Part shown: piece after piece, positions 8,407 through 48,800 of the stretch
Layout of the letters: every line of letters begins with the position of its first letter
How positions within the stretch are numbered: position 1 is the stretch's first letter
Source: Myxococcaceae bacterium
Lineage (GTDB): Bacteria > Myxococcota > Myxococcia > Myxococcales > Myxococcaceae
Reading direction: 5' to 3'
Assembly (NCBI GenBank): GCA_016793095.1
Contig: JAEUJQ010000037.1
Coordinates: forward strand, 76,244-140,243
DNA length: 64,000 bases
The notes under the pieces: generated by a model
Told to the model about the DNA's origin: nothing
Databases searched by the model: none
What the model saw: only the letters and a program-made list of their open reading frames with translations
Made by a program: the position numbers and the translations under genes

Positions 8407-8407
8407 C

Positions 8408-30545: not shown

Positions 30546-32848
30546 AGGTCACCCTGCGCGCCACTCCACCCCTGCTCCTCGTCGCGTTCATCGCCTGCGA
30601 CAGCGGTCCCCTGGGCGTCGACCAGCGTCGCTTCAGTTGTCGGAGCGACGAGGACTGCATCGACGGCTTCGTCTGCGCGGACCGTGGCGACGGGCGGGAG
30701 TGCGTCCAGAGCGCAGCGGCCGGCGGCGGTACCACGGCAGGGGGCGGTGGAGGAAGCAGCGCAGGTGGAGACGCGGGAGGCAGCGCGGGCGGAGACGCAG
30801 GAGGCAGCGCGGGCGGAATCGCAGGAGGCAGCGCGGGCGGGGACGCAGGAGGCAGCGCGGGCGGGGACGCAGGAGGCAGCGCGGGCGGAGACGCAGGAGG
30901 CAGCGCGGGCGGCTCCGCAGGTGGCTCTGCAGGTGGCGGCGCGGGTGGCAGCGCGGGTGGCTCCGCAGGTGGCAGCGCGGGTGGCTCCGCAGGTGGCAGC
31001 AGCGCGGGCGGCTCCGCAGGTGGCAGCAGCGCGGGCGGCTCCGCAGGTGGCAGCGCGGGCGGCTCCGCAGGTGGCAGCGCGGGCGGCTCCGCAGGTGGCG
31101 CAGTCGGTCCGCCGACGCAGCTCGTCTTCTCGAATACGGCGCGGACCTTCCCGATCGCGACCTGCTCACCAGCCATCACCCTCGAGACGCGCGACGCGAT
31201 GGGTCGGGCGAGCCCGGTCAGCGCCGCCACCACCGTGACGCTCACCATCTCCTCGTCCGTGTCGCTGTACCTCTCGGCGAGCTGCGCCGGCTCGCCCCTT
31301 CCGACGATGCCGAGCCTCACCGTCTCGCTGACGGCGGGGAGCTCCCAGACGACGTTCTATGCGCGCGGCAGCTCGCCGGGCACCTTCGCGCTCACGGCGA
31401 CCGCGCCCACCTTCACGCCCGTGATGCAGAACGTCACGCTGCTCAACGGCCCCGACACGCTCGTCTTCACCAACGCGCCGCCTTCACCTCACCGCGCGGG
31501 TGACTGCTTCCCGCTCAGCTACCAGACCCAGCGCACGGGCAGCGCGAACCCGGTCGCGTCGAACACGAGCGTCGCCTTCGGCGTGAGCCCCAGCGGCGCC
31601 GCCCGCTACTACTCGGACGCGACCTGCACGACGCTCACCTCGTCGCAGATCATCCCCGGGGGCACGTCGACGGGCACCGTCTTCGTCCGCGTCTTGACGG
31701 GCGGGACGCCGGTGACGCTCCAGGCGAACGCGGGGCTCTTCACGCCGGCGTCTCGCGTGACGACGGCGCTGCCGATGGTGCGGCGTGGCGCGTGCACGTT
31801 CCCAGCCCAGTCCTGGATTGAACTCGACGGTGGCGTGGATGCTGGAGCCCTCGACGGCGGGGTGAGCCAGACGCTCAACCTCAACTGCGGGTTGTCGCCG
31901 TTGCCTGTCGATCTCACGAACACGATGCTCTTCATCCAGTCCTCGACGTCGGGGCCGTTCAGCGACGCGCTGATCAGGTGCCGACTCGGCGCCACGCCAG
32001 GTGACAGCCTGCGCTGCGTCCGCCGTGCTGGTGAAGCGGGCGCGTCGGTGAACTGGCAGGTCGTCGAGGTGCCCATGGGCGTTCGGGTGGCGACAGCCTC
32101 ATCCTCCAGCTGCCCGAGCGCCGTGACGTTGTCGGCGATGGTGGACCCCGCGAAGGCGTTCTTGTTGAAGACCCAGGCCAACTCCTCGACGGCGTTCGAT
32201 GATGAGGACCTCGTCGTGCTGACGCTGACCGGGCCGACGTCGGTGTCCCTGTCGCGGACGGACTGCCAGGGCATCGATGTGCAGGCCGTCGAATGGGAAG
32301 GCGTGACCGTGACGCGCGGCGTGCTCGACGGTGGGCTCGCGGCGCAGCGGACCTCCGGTTCGATTCTGGGGCTCACTCCCGCGACGACGCAGCGCGCGCT
32401 GCTGGCGCAGCCGGGCACGATGACGAACGGAGACCTGCCGATGTGCGGGGTTCTGGCGCGCGCGACGGCCCCTGGACCCGGCGAGGTCGCGTTCACGAGG
32501 GCCATGGGTGACGGTGGCTGCAGCACCAACGCGCTCGACCGCGTCGAGTTCGAGCGGCTCGACTTCGGCTCACGCGCCACCGTGCAGGAGCGCACGCTGA
32601 CCTTCAACCCGACCGTCAGCAACCTGGTCTCGACCATCACCGCCGTCGACCCCACCAGGACCTTCATCTTCGCGAGCAACCAGGGCGCCTTCGGGCAGAG
32701 CCTGGGAGAGACGTCGTCCCCCGTCTTCGCGTCGCCGCACGAGGCGACGTTCAGCTTCGATCTGACGACCCCGACGACGGTGACGGTGCGCCGGCCGAGG
32801 TCGGCCTCGACGGCGGCCGTGACCTTCTACGTCGTGCAGCTCGAGTAG
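30542..32848 (+). CDS. Lipoprotein with Cys-rich head and a long Gly/Ser/Ala/Asp repeat linker (768 aa)
   Basis: ATGA overlap with the upstream gene. LLLVAFIACDSG lipobox. About 115-aa (GGSAGGD)n/(GGSAGGSA)n tract encoded by tandem 21/24-bp DNA repeats. Beta-rich C-terminal region. Confidence 0.75.
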   Translation: MKVTLRATPPLLLVAFIACDSGPLGVDQRRFSCRSDEDCIDGFVCADRGDGRECVQSAAAGGGTTAGGGGGSSAGGDAGGSAGGDAGGSAGGIAGGSAGGDAGGSAGGDAGGSAGGDAGGSAGGSAGGSAGGGAGGSAGGSAGGSAGGSAGGSSAGGSAGGSSAGGSAGGSAGGSAGGSAGGSAGGAVGPPTQLVFSNTARTFPIATCSPAITLETRDAMGRASPVSAATTVTLTISSSVSLYLSASCAGSPLPTMPSLTVSLTAGSSQTTFYARGSSPGTFALTATAPTFTPVMQNVTLLNGPDTLVFTNAPPSPHRAGDCFPLSYQTQRTGSANPVASNTSVAFGVSPSGAARYYSDATCTTLTSSQIIPGGTSTGTVFVRVLTGGTPVTLQANAGLFTPASRVTTALPMVRRGACTFPAQSWIELDGGVDAGALDGGVSQTLNLNCGLSPLPVDLTNTMLFIQSSTSGPFSDALIRCRLGATPGDSLRCVRRAGEAGASVNWQVVEVPMGVRVATASSSSCPSAVTLSAMVDPAKAFLLKTQANSSTAFDDEDLVVLTLTGPTSVSLSRTDCQGIDVQAVEWEGVTVTRGVLDGGLAAQRTSGSILGLTPATTQRALLAQPGTMTNGDLPMCGVLARATAPGPGEVAFTRAMGDGGCSTNALDRVEFERLDFGSRATVQERTLTFNPTVSNLVSTITAVDPTRTFIFASNQGAFGQSLGETSSPVFASPHEATFSFDLTTPTTVTVRRPRSASTAAVTFYVVQLE
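30755..31106. repeat. In-frame tandem repeats (about 7 x 21 bp, then about 8 x 24 bp) encoding a Gly/Ser/Ala linker
   Basis: Direct reading: gcaggaggcagcgcgggcggagac units followed by ggctccgcaggtggcagcgcgggt units. Confidence 0.9.
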
Positions 32849-32949
32849 CGCCCGGGCCGTCGGGCAGCACGAGCGAGATTGCTGCTCGTCGTGCTCGACA
32901 GGCCGCCTCGCTGCGGCTTTGGTCTGCCCTCACCAACCCTGGAGGGGAC

Positions 32950-34617
32950 ATGACCCGACTGATGCTCGACTACCTCTACGACCACGAGTCCACCCGCGCC
33001 CAGCAGGTGTACCTGACCCAACCCCTCGGCGGCGGACAGGCGAGGGACTACACGTGGGCCCAGGTGATGAGCGAGGCGCGCAAGATGGCCGCGCACCTGC
33101 GCACGCTGGGCCTCTCGCCCGGCGACAAGGTGGCCATGCTGTCGAAGAACTGCGCCCACTTCTTCATCGCTGAGATCGCCATCTGGATGGCGGGCTACAC
33201 GACGGTCGCCATCTTCCCCACCGAGGGCCCGGACACCATCCGCTTCGTGCTCGAGCACTCGGACTCGAAGGTCCTCTTCGTCGGCAAGCTCGACAACTGG
33301 GCCTCGCAGGCGCCAGGCGTTCCCGCGCACCTCAAGCGCATCGCCTTCCCGCTCGGCCCGAAGAGCGACGACGCCGGCGACAAGTGGGACGACCTCGTGG
33401 CGAAGACCGCGCCGCTCGACGGCAAGCCAGCGCGTGACCCGAAGGACCTCGCGATGATCATCTACACCTCGGGCTCCACCGGGCAGCCCAAGGGCGTGAT
33501 GCACAGCTTCGAGCGCGCGACCGAGGCGACCCGACGCATCGTCGAGCGCATCAAGCTGGGCGACGGCGACCGGGCGCTCTCGTACCTGCCCCTCGCGCAC
33601 ATCTTCGAGCGCGCGTACATCGAGTGCGCGTCGATGCTGACCGGCGGCGCCCACATCTTCTTCGCCGAGTCGCTCGAGACCTTCGTCGCCGACCTCAAGC
33701 GCGCGCACCCGACGCTCTTCCTCTCGGTGCCCCGTCTCTGGCTCAAGTTCCAGCAGGGCGTCTTCACCAAGCTGCCCCCACAGCGCCTCGACCTCTTGCT
33801 CAAGCTGCCCATCATCAAGGGCCTCATCTCGAAGAAGGTCCTCACGGGCCTGGGCCTCGACGCCGTGCGCCTCGCTGGCAGCGGGTCGGCGCCCATTCCT
33901 GCCGAGCTCATCGCCTGGTACCGCCGCCTCGGCCTCAACCTGCTCGAGGGGTACGCGATGACCGAAGACTTCGCGGTCTCGCACCTGTCCACCGAGACGT
34001 TGAACGCGCCGGGCTACGTGGGCGTGCCGTACCCGGGCGTCGACGTGAAGATCACCGAAGAGGGAGAGGTGCTCATCAAGTCGCCGGGCACGATGGTGGG
34101 CTACTACAAGCGGCCCGATCTCGACGCCGAGGCCTTCTCCGCTGACGGCTTCTTCCGCACCGGTGACAAGGGCGAGCGACGCCCTGACGGCCTGCTCAAG
34201 CTGACCGGCCGCGTGAAGGAGCTCTTCAAGACGGCCAAGGGCAAGTACGTGTCGCCGGCGCCCATCGAGAACAAGCTGAACGAGCACGCGCTCATCGAGC
34301 TGTCGTGCGTGTCGGGGGTTGGCCAGCCGTCGGCCTTCGCGATGGTGGTGCTGGCCGAGGACATCCGCAAGACGCAGACGAGCCCCGAGACGCGCGCGCG
34401 GGTCGAGAAGGAGCTGGGCGAGTGGCTCAAGCAGGTGAACGCGGGGCTGTCGGCCTACGAGCAGCTGCAGATGCTCATCGTGATGCCGGGGCCATGGACC
34501 ATCGAAGAGGGCACGCTCACGCCGACGATGAAGCTCAAGCGCGCGAAGATCGAGGCGCTCATCGGGCCGAAGCAGGAAGGCTGGTTCGCCAACTCCGCGC
34601 CCGTGCAGTGGGCGTGA
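32950..34617 (+). CDS. AMP-dependent synthetase/ligase (long-chain acyl-CoA synthetase-like)
   Basis: YTSGSTGQPKGV, GYAMTE and LTPTMKLKR motifs. GGAGGGG RBS. Confidence 0.9.
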   Translation: MTRLMLDYLYDHESTRAQQVYLTQPLGGGQARDYTWAQVMSEARKMAAHLRTLGLSPGDKVAMLSKNCAHFFIAEIAIWMAGYTTVAIFPTEGPDTIRFVLEHSDSKVLFVGKLDNWASQAPGVPAHLKRIAFPLGPKSDDAGDKWDDLVAKTAPLDGKPARDPKDLAMIIYTSGSTGQPKGVMHSFERATEATRRIVERIKLGDGDRALSYLPLAHIFERAYIECASMLTGGAHIFFAESLETFVADLKRAHPTLFLSVPRLWLKFQQGVFTKLPPQRLDLLLKLPIIKGLISKKVLTGLGLDAVRLAGSGSAPIPAELIAWYRRLGLNLLEGYAMTEDFAVSHLSTETLNAPGYVGVPYPGVDVKITEEGEVLIKSPGTMVGYYKRPDLDAEAFSADGFFRTGDKGERRPDGLLKLTGRVKELFKTAKGKYVSPAPIENKLNEHALIELSCVSGVGQPSAFAMVVLAEDIRKTQTSPETRARVEKELGEWLKQVNAGLSAYEQLQMLIVMPGPWTIEEGTLTPTMKLKRAKIEALIGPKQEGWFANSAPVQWA

Positions 34618-34633
34618 GCTGACAGGAGCCCCC

Positions 34634-37600
34634 ATGCCGCTGCGCTCGCGGGTCGCCGCGCTGCTCTTCTTCTCGGGCGCGTGCGCCCTCGTCTACCAGG
34701 TGGCATGGCTCCGCGAGCTCCGGCTCATCTTCGGGGCCTCGACCGCGGCGTCGGCGGCGGTGCTCGCCATCTTCATGGGCGGGCTCGGCCTCGGCGGCGC
34801 GCTGCTGGGCCGGCGGGTGGACGCGAACCCGCAACCCCTGCGGCTGTACGCGAAGCTCGAGCTCGCGGTGGCCGGCGTGACGCTGGTGACGCCGGTGCTG
34901 GTGGGGCTCGCGCGCGCCGTCTACATCGCGGTGGGCGGCGCGGCGACGCTGGGCGACGTGGGCGCGACGCTGGCGCGGCTCGTGCTCGCGGTGCTGGTGC
35001 TGGGGGCGCCGACGTTCCTGATGGGGGGCACGCTGCCGGCTGCCGCGCGCGCCATCGAGACCGCTGGCGACAAGGGGCGCAGCGGCGTGGCGACGCTCTA
35101 CGGCGTCAACACCTTCGGCGCGGTGACGGGCGCGGTGCTGGCCAACTTCGTGCTCATCGAGGCGCTGGGGACCCGCCAGACGCTCTTCTTCGCGTGCGTC
35201 GTCAACGCCGTGGTGGCTGGCGTCGCCTGGCGCCTGTCGCAGGGCCTGGGCGCGGCCTCGAAGAGCGGGGCTCAGCCCGAGCAGGAAGACGACGTGGCCC
35301 CCTCGGCGCCGCCGCGCTTCGTCCTCGTCTCTGCGGGTGTCGTGGGCTTCGCCTTCTTCCTGATGGAGCTCGTCTGGTACCGCATGCTCGGGCCGCTCCT
35401 GGGCGGCAGCTCGTACACCTTCGGCCTCATCCTCGCGGTGGCGCTCGTCGGCATCGCGGTGGGTGGCGTGCTCTTCGCGGCAATGGGGCGGCAGCGCGCG
35501 CCCACCCTCACCTCGTTCGCCCTCACCTGCGCGGTCGAAGCGGCGCTCGTCATCATCCCCTTCGCGCTCGGGGACGAGGTGGCGCTGCTGGCGCTCTTCC
35601 TTCGCCCGCTGCGGGGCTTCGGCTTCCTGGGGCTCGTCGCGGCCTGGAGCGTGGTGGCGGCGCTGGTGGTGCTGCCGGCCGCCATCGTGTCGGGCTACCA
35701 GTTCCCGATGCTCATCGCGCTGCTGGGCAGCGGGAAGAAGAACGTCGGGCGCCACATCGGCAACGCGTACGCCGCGAACACCGTGGGCGCCATCGCCGGC
35801 TCACTGGCGGGGGGCTTCGGGTTGCTGCCGTTGCTCGGCGCCACGGGCTCGTGGCGGCTCGTGGCGGCGGTGCTGGCCGCGCTGGGCGCGAGCGCGGTGG
35901 GGCTGGCCCTTCGCGCGAAGACGCCCGTGCGTGCGTTCCTGGCCCCGGTGGCGTTCACCGCGGTGTCCGTCGCGCTGCTCTTCGCGACCGGTCCCACGGC
36001 GGCCTGGCGCCACAGCCCCATCGGGGTGGGCCGCGCCGACGACATCATCGCCCGGCCGTCCGAGGTCGCCGTCGAGAACTGGCTGCGCGCGTCGCGCGAC
36101 GGGATTCTGTGGGAGGCCGACGGGAGGGAGAGCTCGGTGGCCCTCAACGGCCGCCTCGGCATGGCCTTCATCGTGAACGGGAAGAACGACGGCAACGCGC
36201 GGAGCGACGCGGCGACGCAGGTCTTCTCGGGGTTGATGGGCGCGGCGCTCCACGCGGCGCCGAAGCGCGCGATGGTGGTCGGCCTCGGCACCGGCAGCAC
36301 CGCCGGGTGGCTCGGCGTCATCCCCGGCATGGAGTCAGTGGACGTGGTGGAGCTCGAGCCCGCCATCCTCCGCGTCGGCGATGACTGCACGCCGGTCAAC
36401 GCGGGGGTGATGAAGAACCCGAAGGTGCACCTGTCCATCGGCGACGCGCGCGAGGTGTTGCTCACCACGCGCGAGCAGTACGACATCGTCTTCTCGGAGC
36501 CGTCGAACCCGTATCGCGCCGGCATCTCGAGCCTCTACACGCGCGACTTCTACGAGGCGGTGAAGACGCGCCTGTCGTCGAAGGGCGTCTTCCTGCAGTG
36601 GCTGCAGGCCTACGAGGTTGACGCGACCGCGCTGCGCATCGCGATGACGACGCTCTCGAGCGTCTTCGCCCACGTCTCCGTGTGGACGACCCAGCAGGGC
36701 GACCTCATGCTCATCGCCACCGCCGAGCCGCTGACCATCGACGCACCCACCCTGCGCGCACGGCTCGAGACCGAGCCCTGGCGCAGCGCGATGGCGCACG
36801 TGTGGCGCGCGACCGGGCTCGAGACCTTCCTCGCGCACCACCTGGCCACGCCGCAGTTCACGAAAGGCATCGCGGACGAAGAGGGCCCGGGCCGCGTCAA
36901 CTCCGACGACCGCAACCTGCTCGAGTTCGCCTTCGCCGGCGCGGTGGGGCGGGGCGCGGGCTTCCCGGTCACCGACGTGTGGAACGCAGCGATGGCGAAG
37001 AAGGCCGACCGGCCCGCCGTCACCGGAGACGTCGATTGGGTGAAGGTGGCGGAGCGCCGCGCGCAGATCAGCCGGGTGCCGTTGCCGCGCGGCGTGTCGC
37101 TGAGCCCGCCCCGCGCCGCGATGCTGCGCGCCGTGTGGCGGCACGCGGCCGACGACCTGCAAGGCACGCTCGCTGCGCTCAAGAGCGACGAGGCCATCGG
37201 CTCCGAGACGCTGCTCGAGGCCGAGGCCGCGGCCGAGGCGTTCGCCGAGGTGGGCGACGCACGGGCGCTCACGCACCTCGAGCTGGTGCGCGCGCAGGAG
37301 CCGGTCGAGGCCGATGCGCTCGAGGCGCGCTACCTGCTGCGCAGCGGGAAGGCTGACGAGGCGTCGCAGAAGCTGGCCGCGGCGCTCGTCGCCTACCGGA
37401 GCGATCCGTGGCCACGCGCGCGGGTGATGTACCGGGCCATTCTGCTCGCCGGTGAGCTGGCCAACCTCGGTCCCCCGCACGCCGAGCGGCTCTTCGCGGC
37501 GCTCGAGAAGCCCTTCTCGGTGACGATGCACGACGGCGCGCGGCGCATGGCGCTGCTCGAGGTGGCGATGCGCCTCGACGGGACGAAGTGCGCGACCGCC

Positions 37601-37783
37601 GTCGCCCAGCTCGAGCCCCACTTCCCCTTCGAGCGCGGGCCGCTGGAGAAGCGCGTGGCGTGTCTCAAGCGCGGAGGAGCGGCCGCCGAGCTCGCCCGGG
37701 CCACCGCCGACCTGCAGCGCTTCGTCGCGGCCAGCCCCCCGCCCTTCGCGAGGTCGGGTGGAGGGACCGGCGACGGCGACTGA
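34634..37783 (+). CDS. Fused polytopic membrane (MFS-like) / spermidine-synthase-like aminopropyltransferase family protein (1049 aa)
   Basis: About 12 N-terminal TM helices. Spermidine-synthase-like GLGTGSTAGW and DIVFSEPSNP motifs. Long helical C-terminal tail. AGGAG RBS, 16 bp after the ligase gene. Confidence 0.85.
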   Translation: MPLRSRVAALLFFSGACALVYQVAWLRELRLIFGASTAASAAVLAIFMGGLGLGGALLGRRVDANPQPLRLYAKLELAVAGVTLVTPVLVGLARAVYIAVGGAATLGDVGATLARLVLAVLVLGAPTFLMGGTLPAAARAIETAGDKGRSGVATLYGVNTFGAVTGAVLANFVLIEALGTRQTLFFACVVNAVVAGVAWRLSQGLGAASKSGAQPEQEDDVAPSAPPRFVLVSAGVVGFAFFLMELVWYRMLGPLLGGSSYTFGLILAVALVGIAVGGVLFAAMGRQRAPTLTSFALTCAVEAALVIIPFALGDEVALLALFLRPLRGFGFLGLVAAWSVVAALVVLPAAIVSGYQFPMLIALLGSGKKNVGRHIGNAYAANTVGAIAGSLAGGFGLLPLLGATGSWRLVAAVLAALGASAVGLALRAKTPVRAFLAPVAFTAVSVALLFATGPTAAWRHSPIGVGRADDIIARPSEVAVENWLRASRDGILWEADGRESSVALNGRLGMAFIVNGKNDGNARSDAATQVFSGLMGAALHAAPKRAMVVGLGTGSTAGWLGVIPGMESVDVVELEPAILRVGDDCTPVNAGVMKNPKVHLSIGDAREVLLTTREQYDIVFSEPSNPYRAGISSLYTRDFYEAVKTRLSSKGVFLQWLQAYEVDATALRIAMTTLSSVFAHVSVWTTQQGDLMLIATAEPLTIDAPTLRARLETEPWRSAMAHVWRATGLETFLAHHLATPQFTKGIADEEGPGRVNSDDRNLLEFAFAGAVGRGAGFPVTDVWNAAMAKKADRPAVTGDVDWVKVAERRAQISRVPLPRGVSLSPPRAAMLRAVWRHAADDLQGTLAALKSDEAIGSETLLEAEAAAEAFAEVGDARALTHLELVRAQEPVEADALEARYLLRSGKADEASQKLAAALVAYRSDPWPRARVMYRAILLAGELANLGPPHAERLFAALEKPFSVTMHDGARRMALLEVAMRLDGTKCATAVAQLEPHFPFERGPLEKRVACLKRGGAAAELARATADLQRFVAASPPPFARSGGGTGDGD

Positions 37784-37799
37784 GCTATGACCAGGCTCC

Positions 37800-39485
37800 A
37801 TGCCTCGTCGAGTCACCACGCCGCAGGTCCCCGCCGTTCCTTCTCCCACGCCAGCGACGACGCCGTCCGTCAACGGCACCACCGCGACGCCCGCGACCAC
37901 CGCGGTGAGCGGCGTTCGCGACGCCTTCACCAGCTCGGCGGCGCCGGCCATCGAGACCGTCTTCACGCCCGGCAACCAGGCGCTGCAGATGGAGCTCAAG
38001 GAGCTCGACGCCATCATCAACGCGCGCCGGGCCGACGCCAGGCAGTTCGCCACTCCTGGCGAGAACCCGTACCGGATTCAGTACGCGGTCTACAACCTCA
38101 CTGATCCGCAGGTCATCGCGAAGCTGACCGAGGCCTCGCGCGCCGGCATTCACGTGCAGCTGCTCATCGACTCGGCGCAGATCGCGCCCGACCGGCCCTG
38201 GAACACGGTGGTGGACGAGCTCAAGAGCGCGGGCTTCTCGCACGCCGAGACGCACAAGGGGCTGACCGAGGCTCAACGCCGCGACACGCAGATCATCGAG
38301 ATCGACATGGGGCGGGGCCTCTTCCACCTGAAGGCCCGCACCTTCCGCTACCCGGACCCGCAGACCGGCGCGCTCAAGGAGACGCTCCTCACCGGCTCGC
38401 ACAACCCGCAGGAGTCGGCGCACAAGAACAACGAGAGCCTGCACCGCGTCACCGACCCGGGCCTCATCGCGAAGTACACGGCGGCCATCGAAGCGCTGAA
38501 GGCGGGCAAGCCGATTCAGAACTCGTGGGACGAGGCGGCGCCGGTCAACGTCCTCTTCACCTCGCCGACCGCGAAGGGCACCCGCGTCGCCGACAAGCTG
38601 TTCTCGATGATCCGCGACGAGAAGGAGCTCATCTTCATCTCCGTCTTCACCCTGCGGAACATCACCAACAGCGAAGGGCGGACGAAGCTGGTGGACGAGC
38701 TGGCCGCGGCGAAGGCGCGCGGGGTGAAGGTGACGGTGGTGACCGACCAGAAGCAGGCTGACGGCGTGGACGTGGACGGGAACCCGCGCCCCGACTCGAG
38801 CGACGACGACACCGAGGACCTGCTGCGCGCCGCCGGTATCCCCACGTACGAGGTGACGAACCGCGCGGGCCCGCACACCGCGATGCACCTCAAGTCAGCA
38901 GTCTTCGGCCTCACCGACATGAAGGTCGTCACCGACGCGGGCAACTGGACCTTCTCGGCCATGGGCAGCAAGGCGTCGAGGCCGAAGAACGCCGAGTCGG
39001 TGCTCTTCATCGACTCGAAGAAGGCCGACGGGAACAAGACGGGCATGCAGTACCTCGGCGAGTACCTCAGCATCCTGAGGCGCTACGCCCCGCAGAACCA
39101 CGGCGGCCCCGAGGTCGAGAACCTCATTCGCGACCTGCAGGCCACGCCGGGCTGGCCGAAGGTGAAGGTGAACTTCGACGTCATCGCGCGCACGAACTGG
39201 GGCCAGGACGTCTACCTCGTCGGGAACACCCCCGAGCTCGGCGGCTGGGGCCAGACCGGGCCGGGCCTCAAGCTCGACACCGACTCCAGCACGTACCCGT
39301 CGTGGAAGGCGAAGGACGTCGAGCTGCCGCTGGGCACGACGCTCGAGTACAAGGTCATCAAGCGCAACCCCGACGGCCGCATCGACTGGGAGCCCGGGCA
39401 GAACGCCGTGCTGGTCGTGGACAACTCGCGCACGCAGACGCCGAAGACGCTCGACGTCCGCGATGACTTCAACGGCGACAGTTGA
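37800..39485 (+). CDS. Phospholipase D-like (HKD) protein with C-terminal CBM20-like domain
   Basis: Two HxK...GSHN/GNWT motifs (FHLKARTF...GSHNPQES; MHLKSAVF). C-terminal WGQDVYLVGNTPELGGWG...LEYKVIK resembles a starch-binding domain. 16 bp after the upstream gene. Confidence 0.8.
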   Translation: MPRRVTTPQVPAVPSPTPATTPSVNGTTATPATTAVSGVRDAFTSSAAPAIETVFTPGNQALQMELKELDAIINARRADARQFATPGENPYRIQYAVYNLTDPQVIAKLTEASRAGIHVQLLIDSAQIAPDRPWNTVVDELKSAGFSHAETHKGLTEAQRRDTQIIEIDMGRGLFHLKARTFRYPDPQTGALKETLLTGSHNPQESAHKNNESLHRVTDPGLIAKYTAAIEALKAGKPIQNSWDEAAPVNVLFTSPTAKGTRVADKLFSMIRDEKELIFISVFTLRNITNSEGRTKLVDELAAAKARGVKVTVVTDQKQADGVDVDGNPRPDSSDDDTEDLLRAAGIPTYEVTNRAGPHTAMHLKSAVFGLTDMKVVTDAGNWTFSAMGSKASRPKNAESVLFIDSKKADGNKTGMQYLGEYLSILRRYAPQNHGGPEVENLIRDLQATPGWPKVKVNFDVIARTNWGQDVYLVGNTPELGGWGQTGPGLKLDTDSSTYPSWKAKDVELPLGTTLEYKVIKRNPDGRIDWEPGQNAVLVVDNSRTQTPKTLDVRDDFNGDS

Positions 39486-39492
39486 GCGCGCG

Positions 39493-41076
39493 ATGTCGAG
39501 GCTCCTGTTGCTGGTGACCATCTCCGGCGTCTTCGCCTGTGGAACCACGCCGACCCGTCCCTGCTCGGCGGCGTCCTGCCCGCTCGGCTGCTGCAGCGCA
39601 GGCCGGTGCGAGCCCGGCACGCTCCCGTCGGCGTGCGGAACGAACGGCGCCGCCTGCGTCACCTGTCGAACGGGAGATCAGTGCACCTTGAACCGGTGCA
39701 CGTCCGCGGGTGGCGGGAGTTCTGGCGGCTCCTCGGCTGGCGGCTCCGCGGCTGGCGGCTCCTCGGCTGGCGGCTCCTCGGCTGGCGGCTCCACGGCTGG
39801 CGGCTCCGCGGCTGGCGGCTCCGCGGCTGGCGGCTCCACGGCTGGCGGCTCCGCGGCTGGCGGCTCCGCGGGTGGCGGCAGCGCGGGGGGCATGGCGGGA
39901 GGTGGTGCTGCGCGACGGTGGGCGAACCTGCAGTGGCCCCCCTGGGCGACCCTCGACGCCGGGGCGAGCCTGACGATGTACGGGCAGGTCTGGGTCGAGG
40001 GACGCACGGGCAGCGTCGGCGCGACGCCCGGACTCAGCGGAGAGGTGGGCTTCGGTCCTCACGGCACCCGGCCTGACGACCCGGACGCTGGCTGGAGCTG
40101 GCAGAGCACGACCTTCAACGTGGACGTCGGAAACAACGACGAGGTGCAGGGACCCGTGACGCCGCTGACGCCCGGCGTGTGGGACGTCGCGTTCCGCATG
40201 CGGCTGCCGGCGGCTTTCGCGGGAGCGGTCTTCGGCGACCGGAGCGACCGCGGCCGGGTCGGCAGCGACGACGGCTATCAGACGGAGAACGCAGGCCGGC
40301 TCGTGGTGCCCGGCCCGGGCGCGCGGCTCGAGGTCGCGAGCCTCAACCTCCAGTGCCTCACCGGTGACGTGGCGGCACGGCTCGACGCCGCGGCGCAGCG
40401 GTTCGCACAGCTCGGCACCGACGTCATCGCGCTGCAGGAGGTCTGTGTCCCGGCTCAAGACGCGGGCGTGACCGACACCGCTGAGATGCTCGCTGGCCTC
40501 CTCAGCACGCGCACGGGCCGACGCTGGACGAGCCGCTTCGCCTTCACGCACCTCGCGAACAACGTGACGCCCGAGGGCCTGGGCCTGGTGACGGCGCTGC
40601 CGCTGAGTGAGCTGCAGGTCATCGACCTGCCCGTGGGGGACTTCCAGCGGCGCGCCCTCATCGGCGTCGTCGCGTCCTCCGTCGGCATGGTCGCGGTGGC
40701 GGCGACCCACTTCTCGTTCCGCACCCAGGACGCGCAGGTGCGGGTCGCGCAGGCGAACGCCATCGTCACCGCCCTCGGCCAGTTGATGCCCGCCACGCCG
40801 CGCCAGTTGGTGCTCGGTGACCTGAACGCGATTCCCACCGAGGCCTGCCACGACGTCTTCCGCATGGCGGGCTTCGTCGATGCATGGAACGCAGTGCACC
40901 CCTCCCTCCCCGGCTTCACGCACACGAGCACGAGCCCCACCCGGCGCATCGACTACGTGTGGGCGCGAGGTCCGCTCGACGCGGTCGCGGCGGAGACCCA
41001 GTTCGGCGCCCCCTTCCGCGGTACCGAGTACGTGTCGGATCACCTCGGCCTGACCGTGGAGTTCTCGACGCGCTGA
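39493..41076 (+). CDS. EEP-family lipoprotein with Cys-rich head and Gly/Ser/Ala linker
   Basis: MSRLLLLVTISGVFACG lipobox. About 12 Cys in the first 60 aa. (AGGSx)n linker. EEP motifs DVIALQEV, GDLNAIP, RIDYVWA, SDHLGL. Confidence 0.8.
   Translation: MSRLLLLVTISGVFACGTTPTRPCSAASCPLGCCSAGRCEPGTLPSACGTNGAACVTCRTGDQCTLNRCTSAGGGSSGGSSAGGSAAGGSSAGGSSAGGSTAGGSAAGGSAAGGSTAGGSAAGGSAGGGSAGGMAGGGAARRWANLQWPPWATLDAGASLTMYGQVWVEGRTGSVGATPGLSGEVGFGPHGTRPDDPDAGWSWQSTTFNVDVGNNDEVQGPVTPLTPGVWDVAFRMRLPAAFAGAVFGDRSDRGRVGSDDGYQTENAGRLVVPGPGARLEVASLNLQCLTGDVAARLDAAAQRFAQLGTDVIALQEVCVPAQDAGVTDTAEMLAGLLSTRTGRRWTSRFAFTHLANNVTPEGLGLVTALPLSELQVIDLPVGDFQRRALIGVVASSVGMVAVAATHFSFRTQDAQVRVAQANAIVTALGQLMPATPRQLVLGDLNAIPTEACHDVFRMAGFVDAWNAVHPSLPGFTHTSTSPTRRIDYVWARGPLDAVAAETQFGAPFRGTEYVSDHLGLTVEFSTR
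39711..39905. repeat. In-frame tandem 15-bp repeats (about 12 copies) encoding (S/A)AGGS linker
   Basis: gctggcggctccNcg units read directly. Confidence 0.85.
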
Positions 41077-41162
41077 CCTCGGCGCGCCGGCTCCGGCGTG
41101 ACGGAGCGGGGCATGCTCGCGAGGGCGCGCTGGCCCGAGGGGGGCCTTCCCCGGCCGTCCAC

Positions 41163-41345
41163 CGACCTCACCATCGGCGACGTCCACTGGCTGAAGGTGG
41201 CCGAGCGCGAGGTGAACCGCGTGCAGCGCCCTCGTGGCCGAGCCGACCGCACCTGGACTGCTGCACGCCGGGTGGCAGCACGCGGCAGACGACCTGCCCG
41301 GCACGCTCGCCGCGTTGAAGGCGGACGAGGCCATCGTGTCCAGCA
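41163..41345 (+). pseudogene. Degenerate, frameshifted partial copy of codons about 37021-37205 of the spermidine-synthase-like gene
   Basis: Nucleotide and peptide similarity: AVWRHAADDLQGTLAALKSDEAIGSE versus AGWQHAADDLPGTLAALKADEAIVSS, and DVDWVKVAERRAQISRVPLPRG versus DVHWLKVAEREVNRVQRPRG, with a frame switch near 41235. Similarity is lost after 41345. Confidence 0.5.
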
Positions 41346-41476
41346 CGCCGCGCGACGCCGAGCGGGCCGTACACGGCGACCGTCACCGTCCCCTTGAGGG
41401 AGCGGCGGCCGAGGGGTGCAGCCTGAGCGCCTGGGCAGGCGGGGTAGCTCCGGTTCGGTGGCGCGGGCGGCGGTCT

Positions 41477-41854
41477 TCACCGCGACGCCGGGGGCCGCAG
41501 GTCGGCGAGCGCCTGGTCGACGTCGATGGTCGGGTCCGGCGTGAGGCTGATGACGAGGTCCTGCCTGCTGGGGACGACCTCGACGCGTACGCCCACCGTC
41601 GCCGGGCGCACCAGCGCTGTCCTGCGCCACAGCCGCCAGCCTCCATCGGGCGTCATCGCCTCGAGCTGGCCGAGCCACGCCCCCGGCACGCCACCCGACA
41701 CGACACGCCACCGCAGGAGCGAGGGGCTGCACGCCTCGAGGCGCTCGCCGGGCGCGTCGCTCAACGCGGTCAGCTCCCAGCCCTTCCATGGCTCGCAGGG
41801 CGCGACCTTCGGACAGCCGGACAAGGCGGGGACGAGCAGGAGCCAGCGCATCAT
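41477..41854 (-). CDS. Small lipoprotein (125 aa)
   Basis: MMRWLLLVPALSGC lipobox at the protein-like 3' end of an otherwise antisense-to-pepN ORF. Weak RBS. Confidence 0.5.
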   Translation of the reverse strand: MMRWLLLVPALSGCPKVAPCEPWKGWELTALSDAPGERLEACSPSLLRWRVVSGGVPGAWLGQLEAMTPDGGWRLWRRTALVRPATVGVRVEVVPSRQDLVISLTPDPTIDVDQALADLRPPASR

Positions 41855-41899
41855 CGAGACGATGCCGCACCGGCGGCCGGTGCTGCTACATCTCCCGCC

Positions 41900-44566
41900 A
41901 TGCTGAAGGACGCCACGCCGAAGACCATTCGCCTGTCCGAGTACCGCCCGCCCGACTTCGCCATCGAGCGCGTCGCCCTCACCTTCGACCTCGACGTGGA
42001 CCGCACCGAGGTCGAGGCCGAGCTCGTCTTCCGACGCCTCGGCGGCCTGGGTCCGCTCGTGCTCGACGGCGCCGACGACGCCGAAGGTTCGGGCCAGCTG
42101 CTCTCGCTGCGCATCGACGGCGTGGAGCCACCGGCCAGCGCGTTCACCGTCTCCGAGAACGGGCTCACCCTGCACGCCCCGAAGGACCGGTTCACGCTGA
42201 CGACCCGCCGCCGCCTGACGCCGTCGAAGAACAAGAGCCTCGAGGGCCTCTACGCCTCGGCGAGCGGGCTCTACACGCAGTGCGAGGCCGAGGGCTTCCG
42301 GAAGATCACCTGGTACCTCGACCGCCCCGACGTGATGAGCGTCTTCACCGTCACCCTGCGCGCCGACCCCGAGCGCTTCCCGGTGCTGCTCAGCAACGGC
42401 AACAAGGTGAGCGAGCGCGACGAGGTGGTGAACGGCCAGCGCCGGCGCGTGGCCGTGTGGCACGACCCGTTCAAGAAGCCCTGCTACCTCTTCGCCGTCG
42501 TCGCGGCGGACCTGGTGGCGCGCAAGGGCTCGTTCACCACCAGGAGCGGCCGCGCCGTCGAGCTCAACGTCTGGGTGCAGCCGCACGACCTCGACCAGAC
42601 GGCGCACTGCCTCGACAGCCTCGTCAAGTCGATGAGCTGGGACGAGACGCGCTTCGGCCGCGAGTACGACCTCGACGTCTTCAACCTCGTCGCCGTGTCG
42701 GACTTCAACATGGGCGCGATGGAGAACAAGGGCCTCAACGTCTTCAACACGAAGTTCGTGCTCGCCCGCCCCGACACCGCGACCGACGTGGACTTCGCGA
42801 ACATCGAGGGCGTCGTCGGCCATGAGTACTTCCACAACTGGTCGGGCAACCGCGTCACCTGCCGCGACTGGTTCCAGCTCTCGCTGAAGGAGGGCTTCAC
42901 GGTCTTCCGCGACCAGGAGTTCTCGAGCGACGTCGGCTCGCGCGCGGTGAAGCGCATCGAAGAGGTGCGGCGCCTGCGCAGCCTGCAGTTCCCCGAGGAC
43001 CAGGGACCGACGGCGCACCCGGTGCGACCCGATAGCTACGTCGAGATCTCCAACTTCTACACCGTCACCATCTACGAGAAGGGCGCCGAGGTGGTGCGCA
43101 TGTACCTCACGCTGCTCGGCGAGGAGGCCTTCCGCCGCGGCACCGACCTCTACTTCTCGCGGCACGACGGCCAGGCCGTGACGACCGACGACTTCCTCGC
43201 GTGCATGGCCGAGGTGAGCGGCCGCGACTTCCGCCAGTTCAAGCGCTGGTACTCGCAAGCCGGGACGCCGCGGGTGAGCGCGCGCGGAGCCTGGGACGAG
43301 CCCACGAAGACGTGGACGCTCACGCTCTCGCAGACGGTGCCGCCGACGCCGGATCAGCCGAGGAAGGAGCCGATGCACATCCCCGTCGTCACCGCACTGC
43401 TGGGGCGCGACGGCAAGCGGCTGCCGCTGGTCGTGAACGGCGAGCGGCGCGGCGTCGAGACCGTGCTCGAGCTCACCACCGACGAGGAGCGCTTCGCCTT
43501 CACCGGCCTGTCCGAGAAGCCGGTGCCGTCGCTCCTGCGGGGCTTCTCGGCGCCGGTGCAGCTCGAGACTGACGACGACGAGGCCGCCATCCTCTTCCGG
43601 CTCGCTCACGACGACGACGCCTTCAACCGCGTCGAGGCCGGCCAGGAGCTGTTCTTCCGGCACCTCTTCGCGAACGTCGCCGCGCTGCAGGCGGGCGGGG
43701 CACTGACCGAGCCTTCGACGGCGCTCGTCGATGCCGTGAAGACCGCGCTCGCGACCTCGCTCGAGCAGGGAGACCCGGCGTTGCTCGCCCTCGCGCTCTC
43801 GGTGCCAGGCATCGACCTCATCGGCGACCGGCTGCCGTGGGCGGACTACGCGAACGCCTTCCTCGCGCGCGAGCACCTCGTCACGGCGCTCGCCTCCACG
43901 CTCAGGCCCCTCATCAGCGACGTTGACGCGCACCTCTCGAAGGGCCTCGACGGAGCGCCGTACCGCTTCACCCCCGACGACGTGGGCCGCCGCAGCCTGC
44001 GCAACCTGATGGTGTCGTGGCGCGCGCGCCTGCCGGACGGAGAGCACCACGTCGTGGGCCACCTCCGCCGCGCCGGCTGCATGACCGACACCCAGGCCGC
44101 CCTCGCGCTGCTCGCGAACACCGAGAGCCGCGCACGCGACGAGGCGTTCGCCGCCTTCTACGCGCAGTGGAAGGGCGAGGCGCTCATGGTGGACAAGTGG
44201 TTCACCATGCAGGCCATGAGCACGCGGGCGCGGGCGCTCGACGATGTGCTCACGCTCACGACCCACGAGGCCTTCACGCTCGAGAACCCCAACCGCGCGC
44301 GCTCGGTCATCGCGTCGTTCGGCATGGCGAACCCGCTGCGCTTCCACGAGGCGTCGGGGCGCGGCTACGTCTTCCTGGCCGAGCAGGTGCGGGCCCTCGA
44401 CGTCTTCAACGCGCAGATCGCCGCCCGGTTGATGACGCCGCTGACGCGCTGGAAGCGGCAGGACCCGCCGCGGCAGGCGCTCATGAAGCGCGAGCTGCAG
44501 CGCATCCTCGACCGGGAGGGCTGCAGCAAGGACGTGTACGAGATCGCGACGAAGTCGTTGGCCTGA
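41900..44566 (+). CDS. pepN: Aminopeptidase N (M1 family)
   Basis: GAMENKGLNVFN and HEYFHNWSGN motifs with a PepN-like N-terminus (IRLSEYRPPDF). 888 aa. Confidence 0.92.
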   Translation: MLKDATPKTIRLSEYRPPDFAIERVALTFDLDVDRTEVEAELVFRRLGGLGPLVLDGADDAEGSGQLLSLRIDGVEPPASAFTVSENGLTLHAPKDRFTLTTRRRLTPSKNKSLEGLYASASGLYTQCEAEGFRKITWYLDRPDVMSVFTVTLRADPERFPVLLSNGNKVSERDEVVNGQRRRVAVWHDPFKKPCYLFAVVAADLVARKGSFTTRSGRAVELNVWVQPHDLDQTAHCLDSLVKSMSWDETRFGREYDLDVFNLVAVSDFNMGAMENKGLNVFNTKFVLARPDTATDVDFANIEGVVGHEYFHNWSGNRVTCRDWFQLSLKEGFTVFRDQEFSSDVGSRAVKRIEEVRRLRSLQFPEDQGPTAHPVRPDSYVEISNFYTVTIYEKGAEVVRMYLTLLGEEAFRRGTDLYFSRHDGQAVTTDDFLACMAEVSGRDFRQFKRWYSQAGTPRVSARGAWDEPTKTWTLTLSQTVPPTPDQPRKEPMHIPVVTALLGRDGKRLPLVVNGERRGVETVLELTTDEERFAFTGLSEKPVPSLLRGFSAPVQLETDDDEAAILFRLAHDDDAFNRVEAGQELFFRHLFANVAALQAGGALTEPSTALVDAVKTALATSLEQGDPALLALALSVPGIDLIGDRLPWADYANAFLAREHLVTALASTLRPLISDVDAHLSKGLDGAPYRFTPDDVGRRSLRNLMVSWRARLPDGEHHVVGHLRRAGCMTDTQAALALLANTESRARDEAFAAFYAQWKGEALMVDKWFTMQAMSTRARALDDVLTLTTHEAFTLENPNRARSVIASFGMANPLRFHEASGRGYVFLAEQVRALDVFNAQIAARLMTPLTRWKRQDPPRQALMKRELQRILDREGCSKDVYEIATKSLA

Positions 44567-44569
44567 GCG

Positions 44570-45025
44570 ATGTCCTCCACGTCGCGGGCGACGACGCTCT
44601 ACCGATGGATGCCGGTGCTGCTCGCCGCGCTGCCGGTCCTCCTGTGCCTCGCGAGCGGGCTCGTTCGCCGCGCCTTCCCACCCCCGCCTCCAGAGCCCTT
44701 TCCGCGCCTGCTCATCCCCGGGGGCGCGGCGTTCCTCTCGAAGGACGCTGGCGAGTCCGAGCACTGCTACGCGCACACCGTCGCCCGCGTGGGTCCCGTG
44801 TCGTCCGACGCCGCCGCGAGCTGGGCGAAGCGCCTCGACCTGCCCTGTGACGCCGACGTCGACGGCGGCGCTCCGTGTCCCGCGTGGTCGACCGCGCACC
44901 GCAAGGATCGGTCCTGGGGCCATGAGCAGGACGAGCCCGACGGCCTCGACACGGTGCAGGCGCGGCTCGACGGCACCACGCTGGTCGTGGACTGGGGTGA
45001 CTACCTCTGCGCCGGGCCGCTGTGA
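44570..45025 (+). CDS. Small secreted hypothetical protein (151 aa, 4 Cys)
   Basis: 3 bp after the pepN stop. Hydrophobic N-terminus MPVLLAALPVLLCLASGL. High GC3. Confidence 0.55.
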   Translation: MSSTSRATTLYRWMPVLLAALPVLLCLASGLVRRAFPPPPPEPFPRLLIPGGAAFLSKDAGESEHCYAHTVARVGPVSSDAAASWAKRLDLPCDADVDGGAPCPAWSTAHRKDRSWGHEQDEPDGLDTVQARLDGTTLVVDWGDYLCAGPL

Positions 45026-45148
45026 CGCCGCGCCGGCCTCACGTCCACCTCGCGCACGACACGTTGGCGAGCAGCACCTCGTCTGCGGCTAGCAACGAGG
45101 CGCCAGCAGCCAGCGCCCAGCCAGACCGCGACATGCGTCGCGAGCGAC

Positions 45149-45727
45149 TCAAGCCCCGATGTGGCGCACGTCGATGACTGCGTCCACGACGTGGCGCAGG
45201 CGCCGGCGCTGCCGCACGAGCGGCCACCAGTCGTAGAGCAGCGCCTCGAGCGGCCGCCACATCGCGACCCACCCGGTGATGACGAGGCCCTCGCGAACGA
45301 TCTGCCGCAGCGGCCCCTCGTCCATCCGGCGCCCCACCACCTCGGCCAGCGCGAGGAAGGACACGAGCACCGAGAGCCCGACCGCGAAGAGGTACCGGGT
45401 GCGCTGCCAGTGCGTCGTGAGCCGCGCCTGGGCGCGCTCCGCCTCGTGCCGGAAGTGGACGCGAATGGCCTCCGCAACCACCTCGGTCGGCAGCAACGGG
45501 TCCGCGTCGTCGAAGACCAGCACGAGGCTCACCGGACTGCTGGTGCCGACCTCCGCCACCGACGACACGATGTACTCGACCGCCTCGGGGTCGAGCTCAC
45601 GCTCTCGAAACGGCGCGGGGTCGCGGTTGTCGAAGAGGTGCCGCGGGCTCTTCAAGCGCAGGTCGATGCACCATCGCCCGTCGGCGAAGCGATAGCGCGA
45701 AGGCTGTGCCGGGGTGCTCGTCGTCAC
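45149..45727 (-). CDS. Hypothetical protein (192 aa) with C-terminal hydrophobic segment
   Basis: Protein-like composition, whereas the overlapping plus-frame ORF is Arg/Pro-rich junk. GTG start. Confidence 0.55.
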   Translation of the reverse strand: MTTSTPAQPSRYRFADGRWCIDLRLKSPRHLFDNRDPAPFRERELDPEAVEYIVSSVAEVGTSSPVSLVLVFDDADPLLPTEVVAEAIRVHFRHEAERAQARLTTHWQRTRYLFAVGLSVLVSFLALAEVVGRRMDEGPLRQIVREGLVITGWVAMWRPLEALLYDWWPLVRQRRRLRHVVDAVIDVRHIGA

Positions 45728-45851
45728 GTCGCGCTCTTACACCGCTCCCCCGGCCGCTCGGGCGACTCTTCTCGCAGCGCAACGTCCGTCTGTTGGGCGT
45801 TGACTCCCGCGTCCGTCGAGGCGAACACGTCACCCCTCAGGAGGCCCTCAC

Positions 45852-48800
45852 GTGGGTTCGTTCAAGGACGTCTCGTCGGAAGTCGAGTTCGGCGCACAGG
45901 AGCACGGCGTCATCGAGCTGTGGAAGCGGCAGAACACCTTCCAGCGCTCGGTGGACCAGCGCAAAGACGCGAGGAACTTCATCTTCTACGACGGGCCTCC
46001 GTTCGCGACCGGCCTGCCCCACTACGGACACCTCGTCGCCTCGACGCTGAAGGACATCGTGCCGCGCTACTGGACGATGCGCGGCTTCCGCGTCGAGCGG
46101 CGCTTCGGCTGGGACACGCACGGCCTGCCCATCGAGATGCAGGTCGAGAAGACCCTGAACCTCTCGGGGCCACAGAGCATCCGCGAGTACGGCATCGCGA
46201 AGTTCAACGAGGCCTGCCGCGGCTCGGTGCTCACCTACGTCGAGGAGTGGCGCCGCACCGTCACCCGCGTCGGCCGCTGGGTCGACTTCGACAACGACTA
46301 CAAGACGATGGACCTCTCGTTCATGGAGAGCGTCTGGTGGGTCTTCGCCGAGCTGTGGAAGAAGGGCCTCGTCTACCAGGGCCGCCGGGTGATGCCGTAC
46401 TCGTGGCGCCTCTCGACGCCGCTGTCGAACTTCGAGGCCGGCCTCGACTATCGCGACGTCGATGACCCGGCGCTCACCATCCGCCTCGCGCTCGACGAGC
46501 CCATGGGCGGGAAGAAGACCTCGCTGCTCGTGTGGACGACGACGCCGTGGACGCTCCCGTCCAACCTCGCGGTCGCGGTGTCGAACGACATCGACTACGT
46601 GCTGGTCGATCACGAAGACGGCCAGCGGTACGTGGTGGCGAAGGACCTGCTCGCGGCGACGCTGGGCGAGAAGGCCACGGTCGTCTCGACGCTCAAGGGC
46701 AAGGACCTCGTCGGCAAGACGTACGCGCCGCTCTTCCCCTTCTTCGCCGCGCGGAAGCAGGCGGGCGCGTTCCGCGTCATCCACTCCGAGCACGTCACCA
46801 CCACCGACGGTACGGGCCTGGTGCACATGGCGCCGGCCTTCGGTGAAGACGACTTCGTCGCCTGCCAGAAGGAAGGCATCGAGCTGGTCGACCCCATCGA
46901 CCCCGAGGGCAACTTCACGAAAGACGTGCCGCCCTACGCCGGCAAGAACGTGAAGGACGCGGACAAGCAGATCATCCACGACCTCAAGGCGCAGGGCTCG
47001 GTGCTGAAGCACGCGCAGCTCCGCCACCCGTACCCGTACTGCTACCGGTCGGGCACGCCGCTCATCTACAAGACGACGCCGTCCTGGTACGTGAAGGTCG
47101 AGCCGCTGCGCGAGCGCATGGTGGCGAACAACCGCACGATCCACTGGGTGCCGGACTTCGTCGGTGAGAAGCGCTTCGAGAACTGGCTCAAAGAGGCGCG
47201 CGACTGGTCCATCAGCCGCTCGCGCTTCTGGGGCACGCCAATTCCGCTGTGGACGAGCGACGACGGCGCCGAGCTGCACTGCGTCTCGTCGGTGCAGGAG
47301 CTCGAGCAGCTCACCGGCACGACGGTCACCGACCTCCACCCGCACAAGATCGACCACCTCACCTTCACGCAGAACGGCAAGGTGATGAGGCGCATCGGCG
47401 ACGTGTTCGACTGCTGGTTCGAGTCGGGCTCGATGCCGTACGCGCAGCTGCACTACCCGTTCGAGAACAAGCAGGTCTTCGAGCAGGCCTTCCCCGCGCA
47501 GTTCATCGCCGAGGGGCTCGATCAGACGCGCGGCTGGTTCTACACGCTGCTGGTGCTGTCCACGGCGCTGTTCGACAAGGCGCCCTTCAAGAACGTCATC
47601 GTGAACGGGCTCGTCCTCGCGGAGGACGGCTCGAAGATGTCGAAGAGCAAGCAGAACTACCCCGACCCGAACAAGGTCATCGAGCAGCACGGCGCCGACG
47701 CGCTCAGGGCGTACCTCATCAACTCGCCGCTCGTGCGCGCCGAGCCCCTGCGCTTCTCGGAGAGCGGCGTGAAGGAGGTCGTGCGCACGGTGCTGCTGCC
47801 GCTGCAGAACGCGTGGAGCTTCTTCACCACCTACGCGAACGTCGACGGCTGGAACCCGAAGACCGACCTCGCGAAGGCGCCGGCGCTGCAGCAGCGGCCC
47901 GAGCTCGACCGGTGGATCGTCTCGGTGCTGCAGTCGCTGGTGCGCGAGATCAACACGCAGATGGAGGGCTACTACCTCGACCGCGTGGTGCCGCCGATGC
48001 TCGGCTTCATCGACGACCTGACGAACTGGTACATCCGCCGGTCGCGCCGCCGCTTCTGGAAGAGCGAGGACTCGACCGACAAGGCGGCGGCGTACGCGAC
48101 GCTCTACGAGGTGCTGACGACGTTCTCGAAGGTGGTGGCGCCGGTGCTGCCGTTCTTCGCCGAGCGGCTGTACCAGAACCTCGTCGTCGAGCCGGGCCTC
48201 GCGGCGCCGGGCCAGGACAGCGTGCACCTCTGCGACTACCCGCAGCCCGACGAGAAGAAGATCGACCTGCACGTCGAGCAGGCGATGGCGTCGGTGCGGC
48301 AGACGGTGGTGCTCGGCCGGGCGCTCCGTGAGAAGCACAAGCTCAAGACACGGCAGCCCCTCGCGACGCTCACCGTCGTCTCCACGAACGAGGCGGTCCG
48401 CAAGGCCCTCGTCGCCCACGCGGAGCTGCTCGAAGACGAGCTCAACGTGAAGCAGGTGGTGGCGCTCGCCGACGACGCCGCGCTCGCGACGCTCACCTTC
48501 AAGCCGAACCTGAAGACGCTCGGGAAGCGGCTCGGCAAGAAGCTGAAAGACGCGACGACGGAGATCGCCGCCTTCACCCGCGAGCAGTGGGCGGTGCTCG
48601 AGGCTGGTGGCTCCATCACCGTGCAGGGCGAGGCCATCCTCAAGGACGACGTGTTGGTGACGCGCACGGCGAAGGGTGAGGTGGTGGTGGAGTCTGCTGG
48701 AGACCTCACCGTCGCCCTCGACACCCACGTCACCGAGGTGCTGCGCCGCGAGGGGCTGATGCGCGAGGTGGTGTCGCGCGTGCAGAAGCAGCGCAAGGAC

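Follow-up and report, generated by a model that had tools for sequence, protein, structure and literature searches.

A decayed partial gene copy at the edge of a two-gene insertion in a Myxococcaceae bacterium

Layout of the locus

The locus lies within a 64,000-nt stretch of Myxococcaceae DNA (the window; G+C 70.8%). An AMP-binding enzyme gene is followed by the gene for a 1049-residue fused membrane protein (the parent gene), then by a pair of genes encoding a PLD-like protein with a CBM20 domain and an endonuclease/exonuclease/phosphatase (EEP) protein. Beyond the pair, a 400-bp gap separates the convergent stops of the EEP gene (41076) and a small lipoprotein-like gene (41477), and pepN follows. 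The element studied here, a short fragment resembling part of the parent gene, sits in this gap. The features are listed below; the insertion is defined relative to L084, the orthologous locus of the closest relative.

32950-34617: AMP-binding enzyme gene (Pfam)
34634-37783, plus strand: parent gene, 1049-aa fused MFS-like membrane/spermidine-synthase-like protein (Pfam Spermine_synth at residues 535-683)
37003-37236, plus strand: source segment within the parent gene, residues ~790-868 (alignments with the fragment)
37784-41476, plus strand: 3.69-kb insertion relative to L084, from the parent stop codon to the lipoprotein stop codon
37800-39485, plus strand: PLD-like + CBM20 gene, first cassette gene (Pfam: two PLDc_2 stretches and CBM_20)
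39463-41076, plus strand: EEP gene, second cassette gene (Pfam Exo_endo_phos)
41077-41152, plus strand: gap head, of uncertain origin (weak peptide alignment; GC3 periodicity framed as in the first half of the fragment)
41153-41370, plus strand, same orientation as the parent gene: fragment, a decayed and frame-broken partial parent copy (alignments, indels)
41371-41476, no strand assigned: gap tail, 106 bp with no assignable source (no match in any fetched locus)
41477-41854, minus strand: lipoprotein-like gene, 125 aa, starting MMRWLLLVPALSGC... (GC3 frame signal and translation)
41900-44566, plus strand: pepN, aminopeptidase N, 888 aa (Pfam Peptidase_M1_N, Peptidase_M1, DUF3458 and DUF3458_C)

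Frame-specific GC3 and the translation place the pepN start at 41900 (MLKDATPK...). A longer open reading frame runs from 41234 to 44566, across part of the fragment. Its Pfam matches begin only at residue 333, and the long frame is a mere upstream extension of the pepN reading frame. A preceding sequence-only reading had described the fragment as lying between the EEP gene and pepN. It does lie within that interval, but the 125-aa minus-strand gene at 41477-41854 separates it from pepN. GC3 periodicity in the gap tracks the frames derived from the parent gene and switches with them near 41240. A gene would keep to a single frame throughout; this pattern is that of former coding sequence.

The lipoprotein-like gene carries an LSGC lipobox and is divergent from pepN, with 45 bp between them. 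It has no Pfam family in the precomputed annotation of its relatives. The pairing of the two genes is kept in L084 (77% identical) and in L088 (59%). L088 was the one distant locus recovered by a second metagenome scan with an alignment query, and has a different gene beyond the lipoprotein stop; a first scan with the lipoprotein itself as query returned no match.

The longest open frame of the EEP gene overlaps the PLD gene by 23 bp. A database protein (P0001) is 100% identical to the window EEP, has 527 aa and starts 10 codons later, so that the true EEP start is probably at ~39493. Exact-sequence look-ups of the window EEP, the lipoprotein and P0001 returned no record. Within the EEP gene, positions 39677-39921 form a tandem array in which a 15-nt unit (CTGGCGGCTCCNCGG) recurs ~12 times with identity of up to 96%; the array encodes a low-complexity linker rich in Gly, Ser and Ala. 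The N-terminal part of the protein is variable, since many homologues align with just its C-terminal 59-80%.

Two further observations concern the wider window. Positions 30772-31091 gave staggered blastn matches of 70-76% to L084 15979-16299; the sequence is internally repetitive and is shared with an L084 gene at a different relative position. Near the window start, the nucleotides of 636-846 are ~71-79% similar to those of the AMP-binding genes of L084 (4636-4846) and L087 (2-118) in their 3' part, which suggests, from these alignments, a paralogous AMP-binding gene there.

Homology between the fragment and the parent gene

Smith-Waterman alignment of 41080-41480 with 36800-37783 gave a score of 143. 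By comparison, 200 dinucleotide-preserving shuffles averaged 28.4 (sd 3.3) and never exceeded 41. The alignment paired 41153-41370 with 37003-37236, with 176 of 239 positions identical when gaps are counted. By blastn, 41172-41362 matched 37021-37225 at 72.8% over 206 nt (E ~1e-25), and over the 64-kb window this pair was the only strong second copy of the segment. The best ungapped block joined 37122-37225 to 41259-41362 at 81% over 104 nt. With the two copies 27% diverged, an artefactual join in the assembly over 37700-41900 is unlikely.

The resemblance extended to the encoded peptides. In one frame, 41243-41368 corresponded to parent residues 825-866 at 62% identity, and in another 41176-41238 corresponded to residues ~798-820 at 61%, with the frame switch near 41240. 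A tblastn search with the 1049-aa protein likewise returned residues 830-866 (68%) and 798-820 (61%) in different frames. The likeness to an internal segment of the fused gene, at both nucleotide and peptide level and with a single frame switch, had been proposed from the sequence together with a shuffled-control check; that check was run, and the proposal is borne out. The extent had been given as 41163-41345. Its location stands, while secure homology is slightly longer, at ~41153-41370.

Extending the homology 5' to 41080 gave a score of 21 against 20.7±3.5 for shuffles, which is not significant, and 41079-41160 resembled neither the parent gene nor L084 above shuffles. A tblastn extension to 41080 was weak (parent residues 773-797), and the gap head (41077-41152) may belong to the same copy in a more decayed state. 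On the 3' side, 41371-41476 scored no higher than shuffles against either the parent gene or L084. No remnant of parent positions 37237-37783 was detectable in the gap when 37226-37790 was compared with 41371-41476. Among 90 fetched loci, no further copy of the segment was found except in the parent genes of four close relatives.

The parent gene is intact

The parent belongs to a family named 'fused MFS/spermidine synthase' in the database. In species-representative genomes, 79 homologous loci matched it over residues ~5-1040, and the homologues were all ~1040-1064 aa long. Its closest database orthologues have 1048 aa (90% identity), 1064 aa (87%) and 1047 aa (83%), against 1049 aa in the window. 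The segment repeated by the fragment (residues ~790-868 of 1049) is internal and still present in the parent. Because the parent is full-length by comparison with its orthologues, the fragment is not its 'former 3' region'. The idea that an insertion had cut the gene from such a region, and the accompanying expectation that the fused gene would be longer elsewhere, are thus not borne out: the gene is of normal length and has retained the segment.

We also considered an imported donor allele at the 3' end of the parent. The distance between the window and L084 was 0.108 in the 5' part of the gene and 0.118 in its last 834 bp, and a control pair gave 0.119 and 0.144. This candidate was rejected, as divergence runs along the gene without a step and tracks the control pair.

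An insertion between convergent stop codons

In L084 the gene order is AMP-binding gene, parent gene, a 128-aa minus-strand gene and an 888-aa pepN. Positions 3463-8361 of L084 matched window 32893-37784 at 89.9%, and 8387-11910 matched window 41497-45027 at 89.4%. Between these blocks, the TGA of the parent gene and the lipoprotein stop lie only 6 bp apart (GGCCCG; 8358-8369), and the lipoprotein C-terminus is of equal length in window and L084. Since the L084 stops are 6 bp apart and the flanks collinear, the window carries a 3.69-kb insertion at 37784-41476. Its three parts are a 16-bp leader, the gene pair (PLD-CBM20 and EEP) and the 400-bp gap in which the fragment lies. The 6-bp spacer of L084 leaves no room for terminators, so that the convergent transcripts must overlap or end inside the opposing gene.

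The reading of the fragment as a footprint of an old rearrangement, with the gene pair possibly inserted here, had come with the proposal to see whether relatives lack the pair. L084 supports both points, being collinear at ~90% on either side with neither pair nor fragment. No second copy was present in L085, L086 or L087; L085/L086 and L087 carry other genes after the parent, and no second genome with the same insertion was found among the relatives compared. Synteny breaks repeatedly at the stop-to-stop junction that follows the parent gene.

The gene pair itself occurred elsewhere in other surroundings. Its closest relative, L080, matched window 37798-41078 as one block (L080 455-3765; 82.6%) with unrelated flanks, and its EEP is 84% identical to that of the window. 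L081 matched 37799-41077 at 80.7%, and the PLD-CBM20 gene shared 81-83% nucleotide identity with L080, L081 and L082. The pair, or EEP alone on short contigs, was found in six neighbourhoods (window, L080, L081, L082/L083, L089 and L090/L091). The limits of the homology blocks coincide very nearly with the start codon of the first gene and the stop codon of the second. A 313-aa gene downstream of the L080 EEP was tried as the intact version of the fragment and rejected, being unrelated to both parent and fragment.

Searches for mobility functions were negative. Pfam found only PLDc_2/CBM_20 and Exo_endo_phos in the insertion, with no transposase or integrase and no vector, plasmid or phage functions. 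There were no terminal inverted repeats at the insertion borders and no tRNA genes in 33000-46000. Codon composition of the cassette was native-like, with no foreign signal in GC3 (PLD 0.95, EEP 0.88, flanking genes 0.95-0.97). Four-fold-site divergence of the cassette from L080 was 0.315, and the genome-level value between relatives is 0.22-0.28. These comparisons show the PLD-CBM20/EEP pair acting as a two-gene unit that relocates and carries no mobility genes.

One metagenome sample (JGI 3300045950) holds both L084, with the empty site, and L081, with the cassette in another context. If L084 and L081 belonged to one organism, the cassette's alternative location in the sister lineage would be directly shown.

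Neutral decay and the question of function

Relative to the parent, the fragment has lost 6, 7 and 1 nt in three deletions and gained a single nucleotide by insertion, and these indels break the frame. At codon positions 1, 2 and 3 that are invariant among orthologues, it has private changes at 12%, 29% and 30% of sites. The four orthologues vary mainly at third positions (38, 21 and 9 variable sites at positions 3, 1 and 2). Frame-breaking indels, together with second-position changes as frequent as third-position changes, indicate neutral decay with no coding constraint. The fragment is a gene remnant, in the form of a partial duplicate: it is homologous to a functional gene, truncated, frame-disrupted, free of purifying selection and absent at the orthologous site.

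Were the fragment functional, it would encode a small protein (ORF 41098-41397, 99 aa), or it would give rise to a regulatory or antisense RNA that acts on the parent mRNA through the 73-81% similar stretch. In its favour, a 99-codon open frame spans the fragment and strong codon-position GC periodicity is retained. No terminator being seen, the EEP transcript probably runs on through the region as its 3' end. However, the GC3 periodicity changes frame midway, as the parent-derived frames do, so that the 99-codon frame reads half out of frame, and the substitution pattern is that of sequence without constraint. The copy lies in the orientation of the parent, and its transcript would therefore be sense, not antisense. 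RNA folding on both strands gave no structure beyond shuffles (z = +1.5 and 0.0). In Rfam no family scored above threshold; the sole match, to ZTP, reached 21 bits (E=0.63) against a gathering score of 39 and falls in the gap tail at 41371-41476. No terminator- or promoter-like sites were found, and the fragment is missing from the closest relative, L084. We consider a functional role extremely unlikely. As part of the explanation preferred below, and to judge from sequence features, the fragment in all likelihood does nothing beyond forming part of the 3' untranslated spacer between the EEP and lipoprotein genes.

Origin and age of the copy

Among the fetched loci (87+), the gap sequence matched only parent genes: L084 at 73.7%, L087 at 72.6% and L085/L086 at 70.1%. 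When the frame was repaired, the fragment peptide matched only the window parent and the database proteins P0018, P0019 and P0020 (E 1e-18 to 1e-19). Other family members gave E>0.05, because the source segment is poorly conserved across the wider family. As the matches are limited to the clade, the copy comes from this clade's version of the gene, and neither a distant paralogue nor a foreign donor was its source.

Within the clade, the fragment was not closer to its resident parent than to the L084 orthologue. It shared lineage-specific states with the window (3 of 8), L084 (3 of 7) and L087 (3 of 15), and none with L085 (0 of 14). At sites that differ between window and L084, it carried the window state in 11 cases and the L084 state in 16 (p=0.44). 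Its private branch accounts for 37 changes over 222 sites, corresponding to 23-29% of the ortholog-invariant ones. Total four-fold-site divergence between window and L084 is 0.22-0.28, and the private branch exceeds the per-lineage share of this. On that comparison, the copy seems to be at least about as old as the split between the window and L084. Such an age sits uneasily with a simple history in which the insertion followed the split. Possible reconciliations are that four-fold sites are constrained in the source genome (GC3 ~0.95), that recombination between the repeats, while these were still fresh, removed the insert from L084, or that the copy came from a sister lineage.

An alternative that would accommodate this age is a once-complete tandem paralogue downstream of the parent, overwritten at its 5' side by the cassette and deleted at its 3' side. 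The apparent age of at least the window/L084 split speaks for it, and several genomes do hold two family members, on different contigs (L031/L076, L003/L029, L025/L045 and L032/L079). However, L084, collinear at ~90%, has 6 bp at this place and no room for a paralogue, and no close orthologue locus holds a second copy of the segment. An old paralogue would also be expected to be as distant as the family at large (E>0.05), whereas the fragment matches only the clade orthologue, at 71-73% nucleotide identity. We regard a decayed paralogue as very improbable.

Possible routes to a probable junction duplicate

Very probably, the fragment is a non-functional remnant, most likely a junction duplicate produced by the rearrangement that placed the cassette and since decayed neutrally. 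In this explanation, a rearrangement would have brought the PLD-CBM20 + EEP pair to the 6 bp that separated the parent stop from the convergent lipoprotein stop. The same event, most likely, would have copied at least ~0.3 kb of sequence, lying 0.5-0.8 kb upstream of the breakpoint, and left it at the insert's distal junction. The copy would then have decayed through point changes and small frame-breaking deletions. The end product is an intact gene, the cassette, a short internal copy in the same orientation, unassignable sequence and the original downstream gene. Against this explanation, 74 bp and 106 bp of the gap have no explained source.

We infer that duplication and cassette insertion were one event. 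Its molecular route would have been the integration of a circle followed by deletion, a tandem duplication followed by deletion, or a templated patch laid down during break repair. For a tandem duplication, ~36950-41078 would have been duplicated and most of the second unit then deleted, and the gap holds no trace of the rest of a decayed tandem copy. The lack of any remnant of parent 37237-37783 argues against both the circle and the tandem-duplication routes, unless further deletion is assumed.

In the first of these routes, a Campbell-type integration, a circle carrying the cassette and the 3' part of the parent (from ~36950 to the stop) would have integrated, and the 3' two-thirds of the second copy would later have been deleted. 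Such an integration leaves the gene intact ahead of the cassette and, behind the cassette, a second copy truncated at its 5' end. The architecture fits: the cassette directly follows the stop of the intact gene and precedes a same-orientation copy without its 5' part, which is followed by the original downstream gene. Single-crossover integration of circularised incoming linear DNA is documented in E. coli (PMC3240628). Precise loss through recombination between the repeats would moreover explain how a copy that appears so old can go with an empty site in L084. However, of the direct copies expected to flank the insert, the left is the intact gene end and the right only 37003-37236. The right-hand copy does not continue to the gene end, and an extra deletion of ~450 bp must be assumed. 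No step in divergence marks an imported allele in the last 834 bp of the intact gene. Nor is there other sign of a circular or imported donor, with no hybrid allele, no vector functions, and an insert encoding PLD-CBM20 and EEP only. We hold this route to be doubtful.

A related and bolder reading takes the locus as the fossil of a reversible single-crossover cassette move, whose direct repeats would later have allowed precise loss in L084. We think this quite unlikely. If true, it would explain both the age of the copy and the different site of the cassette in every relative, and would provide a natural example of the relocation of a non-mobile gene pair in large myxobacterial genomes.

Templated insertions of the break-repair kind occur in microhomology-mediated replicative repair or end joining. 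Here, a single complex repair would have copied the cassette from another locus, switched template to add a patch of ~0.2-0.3 kb from upstream, and rejoined at the lipoprotein stop. The copy is short, internal and truncated at both ends, its source lies <1 kb from the breakpoint, and it is flanked by short unassignable stretches (74 and 106 bp). The absence of transposon and integrase hallmarks and the native-like codon composition of the cassette (GC3 0.88-0.95) also agree with such a repair. The four-fold divergence between cassette and L080 (0.315), similar to the genome-level 0.22-0.28, fits an intragenomic relocation. On the other side, junction microhomologies are unreadable after such decay, and the copy ends may have decayed beyond recognition instead of being original. 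We put break repair forward as a tentative possibility.

Implications

Whichever route produced it, the fragment is an ordinary scar of an old genome rearrangement and not a functional element, and it has no bearing on the function of the genes involved. It is a datable by-product of one cassette relocation, and less decayed versions, if found, could reveal the recombination route that moves cassettes in very large, high-GC genomes. For annotation, the 99-codon fragment frame, the upstream extension of pepN and the long antisense frames should not be gene calls, and the small lipoprotein gene at 41477-41854 should be called.

Comparison with known systems

Bacterial gene remnants undergoing deletion-biased neutral decay are among the described systems that come close. 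Like them, the fragment shares homology with a functional gene, lacks both of its ends and has a frame broken by small indels, mostly deletions; its substitutions ignore codon position, and it is absent from the orthologous site of a relative. It differs in being a partial duplicate, with the functional gene intact 3.4 kb upstream, and not a gene inactivated in place.

Campbell-type insertion-duplications, as when circularised incoming DNA integrates by a single crossover (PMC3240628), share an insert lying between same-orientation copies, the upstream one complete and the downstream one without its 5' part. In contrast to those, the downstream copy here stops short of the gene end and of the original flank, and the insert carries no vector, plasmid or phage functions and no detectable imported allele.

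Tandem duplications and merodiploids formed by recombination or transformation span ~100-900 kb, with pre-existing repeats, for example IS copies, at their borders (Johnston et al. 2013, PMC3784515). The likeness to these lies in a partial, direct-orientation chromosomal duplication that can be lost by recombination between the repeats. However, the present copy measures only ~0.2 kb, lacks IS sequences and lies beside a relocated pair of genes.

The borders of transposons and genomic islands can likewise show a duplicated target-proximal piece at the insertion edge, but the insertion described here has no transposase or integrase, no terminal inverted repeats and no tRNA target. Compared with target-site duplications, the duplicated piece is far longer and comes from 0.5-0.8 kb upstream of the insertion point.
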